From IMG/VR virus record IMGVR_UViG_2529293078_000007: 5,365 bases of DNA; one strand, written 5' to 3'. The translations under genes and the position numbers were made by a program. The DNA is from a virus. Lineage: Duplodnaviria; Heunggongvirae; Uroviricota; Caudoviricetes. The notes under the pieces are model-generated. The model had not been told where the DNA came from. It did not search any database and saw only the letters and a program-made list of their open reading frames with translations. Shown piece by piece: positions 1-3,486 of the stretch (positions are counted from its first letter, which is position 1; every line of letters begins with the position of its first letter).

Positions 1-287
1 CTGTGACTGCGCATACGGGCCACCAGCAGAGGCGGCATTGCCTTTTCGATCGCCGGTAACAGAGCCTGCATTTTTTCAACTGCATCAGGGGTGTCTTTCT
101 CTATCCAGCGGAAAATTTTCTGGGTATTGCGAGCCAGGGCTTCCGGATGGCTGTCGTCGTACAGTTCAGGAAACGTCATACCCAACTCAAAATAAGCCTG
201 GGTTATTCCAGCTGCCGGAACTTTTTCGCCATCAGGACGCGCCCAGGCATTCATCGCCATGCGGATGTGTTCATGCTTGATTTTCAT
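1..287 (-). CDS. YdaT-like prophage regulatory protein (PF06254-type), partial; start codon at 287-285, runs off the window start
   Basis: Minus-strand frame is open from ATG (plus 285-287) to position 1 with no stop. Strong SD AAGGGGGG about 5 nt upstream (plus 293-300). N-terminus MKIKHEHIRMAMNAWARPDGEK... recalled as typical of YdaT-family proteins that follow cro-like genes in Rac-type prophages. The + strand ORF 38..280 is its antisense shadow. Confidence 0.5.
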   Translation of the reverse strand, partial: MKIKHEHIRMAMNAWARPDGEKVPAAGITQAYFELGMTFPELYDDSHPEALARNTQKIFRWIEKDTPDAVEKMQALLPAIEKAMPPLLVARMRSH

Positions 288-513
288 GAATCCCCCCTTG
301 GTTAGAAGGCGGATTATGATCAGAATCGGGAATGACAACCGTCGGTATGTGTAACTCATATTTGAGCGCCCCGGCAGTGACTGCCTGAATTAGCAACGCC
401 CATTTCCACGGAACGTCTTCCCCCCACATGCTGACTGTGGTTTTTGACGTTCCTAGAGCGGCGGCTGTTTTAACAACTCCGCCAAAATAGCCTAATACTT
501 CTGATTTTTTCAT
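271..513 (-). CDS. dicC: Cro/DicC-like small DNA-binding regulator, 80 aa
   Basis: Start chosen at ATG 513-511 (MKKSEVLGYFGG...) because GGAG lies 6 nt upstream; the track's start at 561 has no SD. Pattern YFGG..K.A.ALG....VS.W..D.VP...A.L.Q..T.G.L.Y resembles DicC as remembered. Divergent from the repressor gene. Its 3' end overlaps the YdaT-like start by 17 nt. Confidence 0.65.
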   Translation of the reverse strand: MKKSEVLGYFGGVVKTAAALGTSKTTVSMWGEDVPWKWALLIQAVTAGALKYELHIPTVVIPDSDHNPPSNQGGIHENQA

Positions 514-541: not shown

Positions 542-605
542 AGTTTAATAATCAAAACCAAAGAAAGTCAAGAAACAAAACCATCTGTGTTTTAAAATCA
601 AAACA
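542..605. promoter_or_regulatory. Divergent promoter/operator region between cro-like and repressor genes; three operator-like sites at 23-bp spacing
   Basis: AT-rich 91-bp intergenic region. Motifs TCAAAACCA (552-560), ACAAAACCA (575-583) and TCAAAACA (598-605) lie exactly 23 bp apart. The best site is the 18-bp palindrome TGTTTTaaaatcAAAACA (588-605), which overlaps the repressor start codon. Confidence 0.4.
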
Positions 606-1243
606 TGAACAAGCAAACAATATCTGAACGCATAACCCAACGTATGCATGCGCTAAACTTGAAAGGCAAAGACCTTGTCAATGCCACTGGCGCATCAAAA
701 GGCTCCGTAAGTCAATGGATGAACGGTGGAGGAGCGCCGTCCTCGCGTTACATAAGTTCACTGGCAAAGATATTGAAAGTAAACGAAAATTGGCTTCTTA
801 ATGGAGGAGAGTTAAATACAGGTGATTCGCTTGATCTATCTTTACCGCCGATAAAAACGGTTCCGCTACTATCACTTCAGCAGGCAGCAAGCTGGAGTGA
901 TTATATGAAAAATTCCTCAATAACCTCTTGTGTGCAGCTTGTCGGAGAAATCCCGGCCAATACCTTTGCTGTTGTTCTAGAGAGTGACAGTATGTCGACA
1001 TCTGGTGGTGGAGTTTCCATCCCAAATGGTTCAACAGTTTTTGTTGATCCCGATCGAATCGTACAACCAGGAAATATTGTCCTTGCCTTACCCAAAGGGA
1101 CCACAACGCCTGTCATTCGCAAACTGGAGATAGAAGGGCCGGATATTCTTTTAGTCCCCACGAATCCTCGCTACCCTTCAATTATGCTGGATGATCTATC
1201 TTGCATATTGGGAGTATGCTTTAAAATTCAACAAGATATTTAA
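605..1243 (+). CDS. Lambda cI-type prophage repressor, 212 aa: N-terminal HTH (XRE-like) plus C-terminal S24 LexA-like peptidase domain
   Basis: SLAKILKV matches lambda cI LAKILKV. C-terminal domain has the S24 Ser (ESDSM, Ser129) and Lys (VIRKLE, Lys173) at cI-like spacing, and LVPTNPRYPSIM resembles cI LQPLNPQYPMIP. No SD precedes ATG 605, so the mRNA may be leaderless as for lambda PRM. Confidence 0.85.
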   Translation: MNKQTISERITQRMHALNLKGKDLVNATGASKGSVSQWMNGGGAPSSRYISSLAKILKVNENWLLNGGELNTGDSLDLSLPPIKTVPLLSLQQAASWSDYMKNSSITSCVQLVGEIPANTFAVVLESDSMSTSGGGVSIPNGSTVFVDPDRIVQPGNIVLALPKGTTTPVIRKLEIEGPDILLVPTNPRYPSIMLDDLSCILGVCFKIQQDI

Positions 1244-1307
1244 CCAACCTCATCTATTTGATTAACTGTATGCCATCGTAGTGATGGCGTAACAGCTGCC
1301 TGCTTAA

Positions 1308-1329
1308 AATGTTTTGATAAAAAAACATT
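1308..1329. promoter_or_regulatory. Operator-like palindrome AATGTTTTgataaaAAAACATT (second copy of TGTTTT-N6-AAAACA)
   Basis: Perfect 8-bp inverted arms with a 6-bp spacer. Core and spacing are identical to the 588-605 site. Lies directly against the -35 of the predicted promoter downstream of the repressor gene. Confidence 0.4.
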
Positions 1330-1356
1330 GACCTTAAATGTTCGTTTTTCTAAACT
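1328..1356 (+). promoter_or_regulatory. Candidate sigma70 promoter (PL-like) for the ydfA-like operon
   Basis: TTGACC (1328-1333), 17-nt spacer, TAAACT (1351-1356). Sequence-only prediction. Confidence 0.35.
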
Positions 1357-1535
1357 TCATTCATTCCCTCACCCCGCCCCACAGAATGCAGGGCAATACT
1401 TCGAGTTACCAGGCAGTGGTCAGGGGTTAAGTAGCCAGCCCGAGGCGTAAGAACATGACGGCAGGGTTCAACTTTAATAACTATGCAGCAGGTTTTTGTT
1501 CCGCTACCCCGGCGTTAAGGGGAAATGAGGTCAAC

Positions 1536-1688
1536 ATGGATACGCTCAATCTTGGCAACAACGAATCTCTGGTATGTGGCGTGTTCCCCAACCAGGACGG
1601 TACGTTCACCGCGATGACGTATACCAAAAGCAAAACGTTTAAAACTGAAGCTGGCGCGCGTCGCTGGTTAGCCAGAAACACTGACTGA
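1536..1688 (+). CDS. ydfA: YdfA-like small prophage protein (DUF1391-like), 50 aa
   Basis: ATG 1536 has GAGG 5 nt upstream, whereas the upstream in-frame ATG 1455 has a poorer SD and would give 77 aa. MDTLNLGNNESLVCGVFPNQDGTFTAMTYTKSKTFKTE... matches Qin YdfA as remembered, in the same position after the repressor. Stop TGA 1686-1688 overlaps ATG 1688 of the next frame. Confidence 0.55.
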   Translation: MDTLNLGNNESLVCGVFPNQDGTFTAMTYTKSKTFKTEAGARRWLARNTD

Positions 1689-1699
1689 TGAGGTTGACG

Positions 1700-2338
1700 A
1701 TGGAATTTAAAGATTTACCTCCTTCAATCCAGGAGATTGCAGCACACACACTTCGTCATCGTCTGAACGAACTTGAATTGGAATCGGTAACGAAAAAAGA
1801 CACTGATAATATGGCTCGTAATGTGCGCGATGCGTTTACCGGATTGTATTTCTGTGCGTCTATAAATAAACACGACTCAGAGAGTGTGGCAAATAAAATT
1901 GCAGAAACGACAGCGCAAAACATCAATACGAAACCAACGGAAGAAGAAATTGATCAGTTTGCTCATGATGCTGGTTTAAAAAACAAGAAAGAAAAATCGC
2001 CATATGCGGGGAACATGTTTGTTTATGACAATCTCATCAGAATTCGTGGCGAAATTCCGGCGGAATACCTGGCAAGAGTCCATCAGGCATTGCTTAAAAA
2101 TTTGGAAACAGAATTATTTGATGGCAACACTAACGGTTTCTTCATGGTATCAGGCCTTGAGAAAGACTGGGATGCAGAAAAACGCTGGAATGTTGCTACA
2201 TGGTTATTCAGTAACAGAGCCGCTGCACTGGAAGCTTCGGCATGTATTTGCGGCCTGTTCTTAACAGACCACAAATATAATCTGGATGTGTACAGTTATA
2301 TTTACGCTGAACACGGTCCACTCTGGATTGACTGGTAA
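1700..2338 (+). CDS. Hypothetical protein, 212 aa, no recognisable domain (alternative start 1688 would give 216 aa)
   Basis: Long ORF with GAGGT 5 nt upstream of ATG 1700. The alternative ATG 1688 overlaps the ydfA-like stop (TGATG). No Walker, HEPN, nuclease or transmembrane signature recognised by eye. Confidence 0.6.
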   Translation: MEFKDLPPSIQEIAAHTLRHRLNELELESVTKKDTDNMARNVRDAFTGLYFCASINKHDSESVANKIAETTAQNINTKPTEEEIDQFAHDAGLKNKKEKSPYAGNMFVYDNLIRIRGEIPAEYLARVHQALLKNLETELFDGNTNGFFMVSGLEKDWDAEKRWNVATWLFSNRAAALEASACICGLFLTDHKYNLDVYSYIYAEHGPLWIDW

Positions 2339-2548
2339 TTATAAGGAAACACCAGCAGGGCCGCGGCGACCAACAGAACGATTAAAATCAATAATGCCAT
2401 TATAAAGGACATTATTTAATTTATCGTCGAATGCTGATTCTGTGAGCCTCAACTCTGAATGAGTTTTTAATAACCCTGATTGCCTGAGTTGATTTACCAG
2501 GCATTCAATCTGTTTTTCAATAAGCGGATTTCTTTTTTTGTTTGGCAT
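2339..2548 (-). CDS. Hypothetical small protein, 69 aa, convergent with the 212-aa gene
   Basis: ATG at 2548-2546 is preceded by GGAGGAT (plus 2553-2559). The track's start at 2560 is the ATG inside that SD. Stop abuts the stop of the + strand gene (TAATTA, 2336-2341). Uses rare codons (AGA, AGG, TTA); no homolog recognised. Confidence 0.35.
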   Translation of the reverse strand: MPNKKRNPLIEKQIECLVNQLRQSGLLKTHSELRLTESAFDDKLNNVLYNGIIDFNRSVGRRGPAGVSL

Positions 2549-2579
2549 TTTATCCTCCATTGAGGTTCTGGGTTAAAAA

Positions 2580-2885
2580 TGGAGACCAACACGCTGTCAC
2601 GTGTGGTCGTGCGCCGGACACGGATAAGAATCCGGTACTGACAGTTTACTGAAAGGATATTTCCCTGAAAAGTCAGTGCATAACGCGAAAGCGTACGGCG
2701 AAGCTCTTTCCCTTAGAAGGCTTGTCGTTAGATTTCTTCGAACGTGCGCTTCCGGTTGTGGCACTCCGCGAAATGGCGCGGCGGTAAGTATGGCGGGGTT
2801 ATTCCTTCCCCATTGAGGACACCGGGTTGTCAGGTTGACCATACGCTTAAGTGACAACCCCGCTGCAACGCCCTCTGTTATCAAT
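2580..2885 (+). other. GC-rich, hairpin-dense non-coding region upstream of DicF (possible dicF precursor or separate structured RNA)
   Basis: No + strand ORF longer than about 20 aa. Nested hairpin CTGTCA (2594-2599)/TGACAG (2639-2644) enclosing CCGGA (2614-2618)/TCCGG (2631-2635). GNRA hairpin ACGC-GAAA-GCGT (2683-2694). Perfect 9-bp stem GGGTTGTCA (2824-2832)/TGACAACCC (2852-2860). The 95-aa minus ORF here has non-protein-like composition. Confidence 0.3.
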
Positions 2886-2943
2886 TTTCTGGTGACGTTT
2901 GGCGGTATCAGTTTTACTCCGTGGCTGCTCTGCCGCCCTTTTT
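2886..2943 (+). ncRNA. dicF: DicF-like small regulatory RNA (ftsZ-targeting antisense sRNA), including its 3' terminator
   Basis: tttctggtgacgtttggcggtatcagttttactccgtggctgctctgccgccc followed by TTTTT matches E. coli DicF as recalled. It sits immediately upstream of the dicB-like gene as in Qin. Ends are approximate (a few nt either way). Confidence 0.7.
2901..2943 (+). terminator. Intrinsic terminator-like element (3' end of DicF)
   Basis: GGCGG (2901-2905) and CCGCC (2932-2936) flank an internally paired region, followed by a T5 run (2939-2943). Confidence 0.45.
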
Positions 2944-3112
2944 AAAGTGAATTTTGTGATGCGGTGAATGCGGCTAAGCGCACGCGGAACAGTTAAAACC
3001 AAAAACAGTGTTATGGGTGGATTCTCTGTATCCGGCGTTAATTGTTAACTGGTTAACGTCACCTGGAGGCACCAGGCACTGCATCACAAAATTCATTGTT
3101 GAGGACGCGATA

Positions 3113-3301
3113 ATGGAAACGTCATTACCAAACGTTAATACGTCTGAAGGTTGTTTTGATATTGGTGTTCTGCTCAGTAACCGGGAGTTTACTGAAGATG
3201 CCATTAACATGAGGAAATATGAGCCTTATCTGCTCAATGATAATTCCATACTTTCCCGAATTGCTCTTCTTGAACTTGGTATTTTCGGAGAACGTCAATG
3301 A
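3113..3301 (+). CDS. dicB: DicB-like cell-division inhibitor, 62 aa
   Basis: METSLPNVNTSEGCFDIGVLLSNREFTEDAINMRK... closely matches the remembered Qin DicB N-terminus (..LPNVNTSEGCFEIGV...FTEDAIN.RK), with the same 62-aa length. GAGGA lies 7 nt upstream of ATG 3113. The track ORF 3008..3301 is an in-frame upstream extension without an SD. Confidence 0.8.
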   Translation: METSLPNVNTSEGCFDIGVLLSNREFTEDAINMRKYEPYLLNDNSILSRIALLELGIFGERQ

Positions 3302-3486
3302 CTTCAGCATTTGCACTGATGATGACGGTTTTTCTTATAACGGGTGAATCACAGAATGTGATTACCGGAATTTATGCCAGTAAAGAATCCTGCCTCCAGG
3401 CAAGAGACGAGCAAAAAATTTCTGGTGAATGCCTCCCGGTAAAAAAAGTATCGCTGTACCTGAATAACGAAACACCGGCTGGATAA
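3298..3486 (+). CDS. ydfD: YdfD-like small protein with hydrophobic N-terminus, 62 aa
   Basis: ATGA start/stop overlap with dicB (3298-3301) and GGAG 6 nt upstream. Hydrophobic N-terminal segment MTSAFALMMTVFLITG. Same size and position as Qin YdfD downstream of dicB. Confidence 0.6.
   Translation: MTSAFALMMTVFLITGESQNVITGIYASKESCLQARDEQKISGECLPVKKVSLYLNNETPAG

Follow-up and report, generated by a model that had tools for sequence, protein, structure and literature searches.

A small gene antisense to the dicF operon of Qin-type prophages: coding evidence, genomic slot and possible mode of expression

The early operon of Qin-type prophages makes DicF, a small RNA (sRNA), and DicB, which control cell division. 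DicF also activates virulence genes of enterohaemorrhagic Escherichia coli (PMC9438474). In the viral record IMGVR_UViG_2529293078_000007, a stretch of 5,365 nucleotides (nt) that is called the window here and is collinear with the Qin-type prophage region around dicF, a small open reading frame (ORF) lies within this operon, upstream of dicF, on the opposite strand. The segment of the window that surrounds it (positions 2200-2700, 501 bases searched) is identical to E. coli O157:H7 chromosomes. Is this ORF a gene at all and, if it is, what might a gene do that is read against the operon in which it sits? The evidence given below indicates that the small ORF is almost certainly a genuine protein-coding gene under purifying selection. 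How it is expressed, and on what its product acts, can be argued with graded confidence from its position, its leader and its neighbours.

Coding evidence for the small ORF

The first-pass annotation of the window described a minus-strand ORF of 69 amino acids (aa) with a strong Shine-Dalgarno (SD) sequence, and both are seen directly in the sequence and the ORF list (Table 1). Two starts can be considered, giving a protein of 73 aa from ATG 2560 or of 69 aa from ATG 2548, which is the RefSeq start; because ATG 2560 lies within the SD sequence and is out of frame in the relatives from P2-like prophages, the 69-aa start is the conserved one. The length of such an ORF is uninformative, as the window contains about ten unannotated, mechanically called ORFs of at least 69 aa. 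The 69-aa protein is identical to the product of a RefSeq coding sequence that is annotated as hypothetical (WP_001133037.1), and it matches the profile of phrog_4274 over its full length (residues 1-69 on profile positions 1-69; E = 1.2e-51 with hmmscan).

A spurious ORF had been left open by the first-pass annotation, which proposed looking among related prophages for a bias toward synonymous substitution and for frameshifts or stops in the homologues. When the ratio of non-synonymous to synonymous substitution rates (dN/dS) is computed against alleles that are 12-14% diverged, it is 0.19-0.27 in the small ORF's own frame, 0.34-0.69 in the antisense frame with which it has wobble positions in common, and 0.87-2.85 in the four other frames. 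The excess of synonymous change is indeed present: 16 synonymous and 13 non-synonymous changes fall on 47 and 160 sites, respectively (binomial p = 1e-4), and across comparisons the binomial p spans 1e-4 to 2e-3. The dN/dS of the neighbouring 212-aa gene, 0.23, matches that of the small ORF.

Disruptions, which were also looked for, are few. Among 27 distinct alleles drawn from 77 IMG/VR loci, 24 are intact and ungapped. A run of seven A residues (A7; 2531-2537, minus strand) occupies codons 4-6, and its six-residue form (A6) is a frameshift allele. A6 is found in eight of the 77 loci, but among 598 complete genomes just 5 (O26 and O145 strains) match it best, which argues that it is probably a rare inactivation or a sequencing artefact; about 535 of the 598 match the intact A7 allele best.

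The gene is widespread in E. coli. It is present in 597 of 5426 complete genomes (roughly one in nine), at 744 places and with up to four places per genome; the matches listed include O157:H7, O26, O111 and O145 strains. An exhaustive profile search of 1.8 billion proteins, together with a word-indexed search, yielded further relatives of 64-80 aa that are 41-56% identical to the small protein. These are found in P2-like and Rac-like prophages; every relative with a named source is from Escherichia or Salmonella, and several others come from sequencing-run assemblies only. In the distant relatives the protein has been retained although the DNA has diverged past nucleotide alignment, and residues Q13, L21, S24, L26, L27, S31, F40, K43, L44, I52 and P64 are kept. 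The start codon and the SD sequence are conserved as well, with a GGAG(G/A) or GGATGG motif in every lineage. No match to the small protein was found by tblastn in the INPHARED phage records, a scan of the GTDB species representatives gave no confirmed relative, and a literature search by accession, peptide or PHROG identifier returned no paper on the protein.

It is very improbable, then, that a chance ORF has simply been propagated by annotation pipelines. Such an origin would fit with the unannotated ORFs of similar length in the window, and with the fact that no function, domain or literature is attached to the small ORF. However, it is contradicted by a dN/dS well below 1 in this frame only, by the preponderance of intact alleles and the scarcity of A6 among complete genomes, by the match to PHROG 4274, and by relatives whose start context is the same although they lie in unrelated prophage backbones. 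(It should be noted that the gene itself was already known, being annotated in RefSeq and grouped in PHROG 4274, neither of which assigns a function. WP_001133037.1 and PHROG 4274 represent the family of the small protein, to which the P2-like and Rac-like relatives found here are only 41-56% identical. What is new is the proof of selection, these distant relatives, the conserved slot and leader, the pattern that links the protein's tail to its partner, and the analogy with sieB.)

The small protein is basic, having 11 K/R and 7 D/E residues, and is without a hydrophobic segment. A structure model places two helices at residues 8-24 and 42-58, at a poor predicted local distance difference test score (pLDDT) of 58.7. 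These properties point to a small (64-80 aa), basic, mainly helical and soluble family that is represented so far by Escherichia and Salmonella sequences only. Two identities for the protein were considered and set aside. Kinship with Rem, the Qin antirepressor of DicA/CI, was rejected when BLASTP gave no alignment at E values up to 100, and the protein does not look like a type I toxin, being basic and devoid of a hydrophobic stretch.

A very hydrophobic product is encoded instead by a 36-aa ORF in an alternative frame (2302-2412, minus strand; MSFIMALLILIVLLVAAALLVF...), which overlaps the 3' ends of the small gene and the 212-aa gene; 25 of the 27 window-type alleles keep it open, at 32-37 aa. 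This ORF was likewise rejected as a type I toxin: it has no SD sequence, the dN/dS of its frame exceeds 1, two alleles have only a truncated form, and the distant relatives lack it. Pyrimidine-rich wobble positions probably gave rise to it as a by-product.

The slot in the early operon and the partner gene

At all the loci examined, the small gene lies antisense to the early operon, right after the operon's first gene or genes and before DicF or a structured-RNA region, and it is convergent with the gene that precedes it. The details of the junction vary. In lambdoid Qin-like loci, the stops of the small gene and the 212-aa gene abut; in P2-like prophages (with integrase, C and cox), the partners are 220-307 aa long and overlap the small gene by 53 or 11 nt; on a short lambdoid contig, a 62-aa partner overlaps it by 44 nt; and at the lambdoid locus L098, the partner is an N-like antiterminator and the stops are 52 nt apart. 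At the Rac-like locus L082, a 79-aa ORF on the same strand stands between the small gene and a convergent 101-aa ORF. Position and orientation are thus conserved over three prophage architectures.

The same slot holds sieB in the Rac prophage of E. coli K-12 and is empty in K-12 Qin, which has ydfB/ydfC and no small ORF at the equivalent place; phage vB_EcoM-606R7 likewise has ydfB/ydfC and lacks the small ORF there. The gene order of K-12 Rac (L099) is racR, ydaG, ydaF (DUF1391), sieB on the opposite strand, the sRNA KilS, kilR, ydaE, racC and recE. Both sieB and the small gene therefore follow a repressor gene and a DUF1391 gene, lie on the opposite strand and are convergent with the preceding gene, with 3' ends that touch (a 4-nt overlap between sieB and ydaF in Rac, abutting stops here). 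Both are then followed by an sRNA (KilS or DicF), a division inhibitor (kilR or dicB) and recE, and a conserved long stem lies upstream of each. The proteins themselves differ. SieB is described as a membrane protein; it has 162 aa with long hydrophobic stretches, whereas the small protein has 69 aa, is basic and has none, and there is no sequence or profile similarity between the two. Homology to SieB was rejected, since tblastn of the small protein gave no match in the Rac locus and the hhalign probability was 0.2%.

The 212-aa partner consists of N-terminal helices followed by a C-terminal domain with the order beta-beta-alpha-beta-beta-alpha-beta, in which the motifs NMxVYDxLIxIxGxIP, FDGxxNGxF and WxFS occur. 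This domain is homologous to the P2-like partners at 32-41% identity. No Pfam, NCBIfam, PADLOC or PDB-sequence match was found for the 212-aa protein, and its only family matches are to PHROGs without a function (phrog_2151 and four others). Its N-terminal 50-75 residues (window 1700-1925, residues 1-75) match PHROGs 1363, 9419, 6937 and 33007, and the P2-like partners have different N-terminal parts, some with an HTH_3 domain. The difference among the N-terminal parts argues that the partner is modular, and that the C-terminal domain alone accompanies the small gene.

In complete E. coli genomes the association is close to perfect: the small ORF is found at 744 places and the C-terminal half of the 212-aa protein at 751. 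The partner domain lies beside the small gene at L077, L095, L083, L085, L100 and L102, and is absent at L081, L082 and L098. Lineages with the domain have a small protein that ends in a tail near G-R-R-x-P-A-G-V-x-L, and the three without it have other tails. In the window the tail is kept through synonymous changes even though the two genes do not overlap, which indicates that selection acts on the small protein itself. The strict linkage in E. coli, together with a GRRxPAGVxL tail that always occurs beside a homologous partner domain, argues that the small protein probably acts on or with its partner.

How tight is this coupling? The first-pass annotation had suggested that the two genes could form a module. 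This survives in part: the near-perfect E. coli co-occurrence and the homologous C-terminal domain beside P2-like relatives support it, whereas three lineages have unrelated partners (the 62-aa ORF, the N-like antiterminator, and the 79-aa and 101-aa ORFs). In its strictest form, which is a tentative reading but one to be taken seriously, the small protein and the C-terminal domain would be an obligate two-protein module, a toxin-antitoxin (TA)-like or defence/self-immunity pair whose ratio is set by the convergent layout. Such a pair would account for the co-occurrence, for the partner domain beside P2-like relatives at six loci, and for a tail that is present only with the domain and is conserved in the window without gene overlap. 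But the small gene occurs without the domain in L081, L082 and L098, and the linkage in E. coli could reflect the recent common descent of a single cassette. In addition, neither the 69-aa nor the 212-aa protein matched PADLOC, Pfam or NCBIfam, so neither could be assigned to a type II TA system or a known anti-phage defence, and the genes are convergent while those of known type II pairs are co-directional.

Somewhat doubtful, too, is a version in which the tail and the partner's C-terminal domain make up a prophage switch module. The lysogen would make the small protein, which would bind or neutralise a lytic effector produced early, or the roles would be exchanged. The convergent transcripts, lacking terminators, would collide and pair as sense and antisense and so fix the proportion of the two proteins, and the whole might be a TA-like or defence/self-immunity cassette that has moved between lambdoid and P2-like prophages.

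The leader and possible convergent transcription

The stop codon of the small ORF is the complement of TTA 2339-2341, and there are zero bases between it and the stop of the 212-aa gene. As the first-pass annotation pointed out, this leaves no space for a terminator. The TAATTA sequence is retained in 26 of 27 distinct window-type alleles (L076 has a one-base deletion), and in a consensus scan of positions 1250-3150 the sole terminator-like site is that of DicF (2921-2936, plus strand). Without a terminator between the convergent genes, overlap of their transcripts is unavoidable, and any transcript of the small gene must run antisense into the 212-aa gene. This geometry suggests that transcriptional interference may occur at the convergent pair.

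The leader of the small gene was examined in 12 family members, which represent six sequence contexts, with a position weight matrix (PWM) scan that covered 330 upstream nt in each (240 nt in L081, where the contig is too short for more). In all 12 leaders, a promoter-like site that ranks among the top three has a -10 hexamer ending 89-94 nt before the ATG. The site in the window is given in Table 1; those in the other leaders are TTTATT-18-TAAAAT, TTATCT-17-TATAGG, TTAACT-17-TATATC, TTTAAA-18-TACAAT and TTAATT-17-TAAAAT.

Downstream of the promoter-like site, the predicted transcript can form a series of hairpins. The second of these is made from UCCCGAC/GUCGGGA in L083, from UUCCCAAC/GUUGGGAA in L077, and from CUCCAC/GUGGAG in K-12 (read from the alignments), and the leader hairpins occupy different registers in alignment A9. 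In minimum-free-energy folds of the last 75 nt of ten leaders, the last hairpin can sequester the SD sequence. The pairing of CUCCAU with AUGGAG is kept in the window-type and P2-like lineages, and that of CCUC with GAGG is found in L098 and L081; in L082, an AUCUAC/GUGGAU pairing can be written by eye, but the computed fold pairs that segment otherwise.

K-12 Qin has kept the sequence from window position 2604 upward: the promoter-like site and the first two hairpins are retained (L087 2560-2665, corresponding to window 2604-2671), while the SD sequence and the small ORF are replaced by the end of ydfC. If the retained site were active, a non-coding RNA antisense to ydfC would be expected in K-12; the literature searched contained no report of one.

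The explanation preferred here, with roughly even confidence, is that the small gene is a moron-like insert that is transcribed from its own promoter in the lysogen, is shut off by convergent transcription upon induction, and acts with its partner. In this scheme, an independently transcribed insert on the opposite strand would occupy a fixed slot of the early operon. While a CI/DicA-type repressor silences that operon, the small gene would be transcribed from its own weak promoter; occlusion of the SD sequence would gate its translation, and the transcript would run antisense into the 212-aa gene. Upon induction, head-on transcription and sense-antisense pairing would turn the small gene off, so that the small protein and the early proteins would be made in opposite states. 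Finally, in the weakest step of the scheme, the small protein may act on or with the C-terminal domain of the partner where this is present, for example by restraining leaky partner activity in the lysogen.

Two known systems help to place this proposal. A moron, in the sense of Juhala and Hendrix, is an extra gene that is independently expressed from a prophage. Like morons, the small gene is present in some related prophages and absent from K-12 Qin, has a predicted promoter-like site of its own and the opposite orientation, and has a lower G+C content than its flanks (37.1%, whereas the 212-aa gene has 41.3% and the precursor region 51.2%, with neighbouring genes at 39-51%). The remark in the first-pass annotation that rare codons are consistent with a foreign origin holds weakly, AGA/AGG making up three of the six Arg codons. 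Unlike a moron, the small gene has no terminator of its own in the scan described above. The second system is the OOP RNA of phage lambda, a short, non-coding RNA with its own terminator that is convergent with and antisense to cII, RNase III cleavage being involved. The convergent transcript of the small gene would similarly overlap the 3' end of an early gene in an operon whose RNA is acted on by RNase III in K-12; it differs in encoding a protein that is under selection.

Several observations weigh against the moron-like scheme. The scores of the promoter-like sites (3.7-9.6) are not above those of the best sites in shuffled sequences (median 7.4), so that promoter function is inferred from the fixed position of the sites. 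The scan of 1250-3150 revealed no terminator-like site on the minus strand, while classical morons come with a terminator. In K-12 the promoter-like site and the first two hairpins persist though the ORF is missing, and these sequences may therefore serve the sense-strand precursor instead. The small protein had no Pfam, NCBIfam, PADLOC or PDB-sequence match and no match in a Foldseek comparison with the PDB, the structure model being poor. Lastly, the three lineages without the partner domain show that coupling to the partner is not obligatory, and the correlation between tail and partner comes from few independent lineages.

The low promoter scores also bear on a different view, that the small gene is transcribed from a distant minus-strand promoter, or only after induction, as a lytic-phase or read-through gene. 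A minus-strand promoter-like site with nine of 12 consensus matches is present at 3048-3021, and occlusion of the SD sequence would suggest that translation requires an activating event. However, the sequence that contains the 3048-3021 site has no counterpart in the P2-like loci, whereas the site near -90 is positionally conserved in all lineages, and once the prophage is induced, transcription coming head-on from a strong early promoter would work against expression. This view is regarded as quite improbable.

If the small gene is expressed in lysogens, as the moron-like scheme would have it, it becomes a candidate lysogenic-conversion, exclusion or safety factor. The analogy with the sieB slot predicts a phenotype on superinfecting phages or on prophage induction. 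Should none of these readings be true, the locus would add one more conserved hypothetical prophage gene, albeit one with clean protein-coding evidence.

The DicF precursor and other features of the window

In K-12, DicF is derived from a polycistronic transcript that runs from dicBp, upstream of ydfA, through ydfABC to dicF (PMC10448788); RNase III yields a 190-nt species and RNase E the 53-nt DicF (PMC10448788; PMC9438474). The window is collinear with this transcript, in agreement with the first-pass proposal that the small ORF is antisense to it. Counting 190 nt back from the 3' end of DicF (2938 - 190 + 1) maps the RNase III cut to about position 2749, within the long stem listed in Table 1.

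The segment 2679-2869 was also considered as a 5' leader of the small ORF, since its identity to P2-like loci is 81%, while that of the small proteins encoded there is only about 45%. This was rejected. The segment is found without the small ORF in K-12, P1, P7, the cdtI phage and one phage each of Salmonella and Actinobacillus; its orientation is that of the early operon throughout, and the G.U pairs in it point to the plus strand. As 2679-2869 belongs to the early-operon sense and is not a leader of the ORF, the small ORF is truly antisense to the DicF precursor.

This arrangement raises the possibility that the transcript matters and the protein is secondary: a minus-strand antisense RNA would dampen leaky read-through from the early promoter into dicF/dicB, by interference or by RNase III. 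The geometry and the absence of terminators would suit such a role, as would the promoter-like site and 5' hairpins that K-12 retains though the ORF is gone, and the action of RNase III on the DicF precursor in K-12 (PMC10448788). Yet it is the amino-acid sequence that is under selection, the protein persists in distant relatives whose DNA has diverged beyond nucleotide alignment, the SD sequence and start codon are conserved, and the promoter-like site is weak; a primary role for the RNA is accordingly judged improbable. Under the moron-like scheme as well, the antisense transcript could affect the amount of DicF precursor that escapes repression.

Within the precursor, a structured RNA of about 100 nt lies directly upstream of DicF and is found, at 78-97% identity in the best-matching segment, in lambdoid, P2-like and P1/P7 phages. 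In the alignment of its core (13 sequences), 97% of cells are paired and six pairs show compensatory changes, a number reached in none of 500 shuffles; the count of 25 G.U against two A.C favours the operon-sense (plus) strand. The core makes up most of the stable 190-nt DicF species and corresponds to no Rfam family. In P1 and P7 the structured RNA stands immediately downstream of C1-controlled Pban promoters (the P1 record has a "dicF-like region"), and it also occurs at loci without DicF. It may function in RNA processing or in antitermination, or be an independent sRNA. An antiterminator of the HK022 put type found no support, as a covariance model of the core had no match in the HK022 immunity region.

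Table 1. Coordinates of the small gene, its leader and neighbouring features in the window
Feature	Position	Strand	Basis or remarks
Cro-like gene	271-513	-	ORF list/annotation
CI/LexA-like repressor ORF	605-1243	+	
Promoter-like site of the early operon, TTGACC-17-TAAACT (predicted)	1328-1356	+	Consensus scan; dicBp position; collinear with K-12 dicA-ydfA
DUF1391 gene	ends 1688	+	
212-aa partner gene, phrog_2151 "Ybl81"	1700-2338	+	TAA stop at 2336-2338
Abutting stops TAA/TTA of the convergent genes (TAATTA)	2336-2341	.	Sequence
Small protein gene, 69 aa (MPNKKRNPLIEKQ...GRRGPAGVSL), stop included	2339-2548	-	ORF list; RefSeq WP_001133037.1; PHROG 4274; dN/dS; relatives
SD sequence GGAGGA	2558-2553	-	5 nt ahead of ATG 2548
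Two possible anti-SD segments, CCTC 2565-2562 and CUCCAU 2584-2579	2562-2584	-	Can pair with AUGGAGG 2560-2554
Second leader hairpin, ACACG-loop-CGUGU	2586-2606	-	Formed by a different sequence in each lineage
First leader hairpin, CCGGA-12 nt-UCCGG, at the predicted mRNA 5' end	2614-2635	-	Conserved block in alignments A3 and A9; CAGG/CCUG instead in L081
Promoter-like site of the small gene, TTTTCA (2671-2666)-17 nt-TAAACT (2648-2643)	2643-2671	-	PWM scan; predicted start near 2636
Long stem in the DicF precursor, 2679-2694 with 2746-2760	2679-2760	+	Folds
Structured core of the precursor RNA, conserved; lies outside the small gene	2768-2868	+	Alignment A7; RNAalifold; pair counts
DicF sRNA and terminator	2887-2938	+	Rfam RF00039, 75 bits
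dicB	3113-3301	+	
DUF1482 gene	3298-3486	+	
RecE-like fragment	after the DUF1482 gene		Window map

Two further features of the window deserve mention. The repressor ORF encodes a complete CI-like repressor of 212 aa, with an HTH_3 domain (residues 17-64; 21.5 bits, slightly below the Pfam cut-off of 23 bits) and a Peptidase_S24 domain. RefSeq covers only its final 339 nt, as a "LexA family protein", and the RefSeq start is therefore probably too far downstream. Beyond DicF, the spacer that leads to dicB (2936-3145, plus strand) gives a sub-threshold match to the Rfam family STnc100 (34.5 bits; gathering score 47), and it shares 78% identity with the part of Rac in which the sRNA KilS is encoded (L099 2250-2454). 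This identity suggests that Qin-type and Rac prophages may share a second sRNA-like element downstream of DicF.

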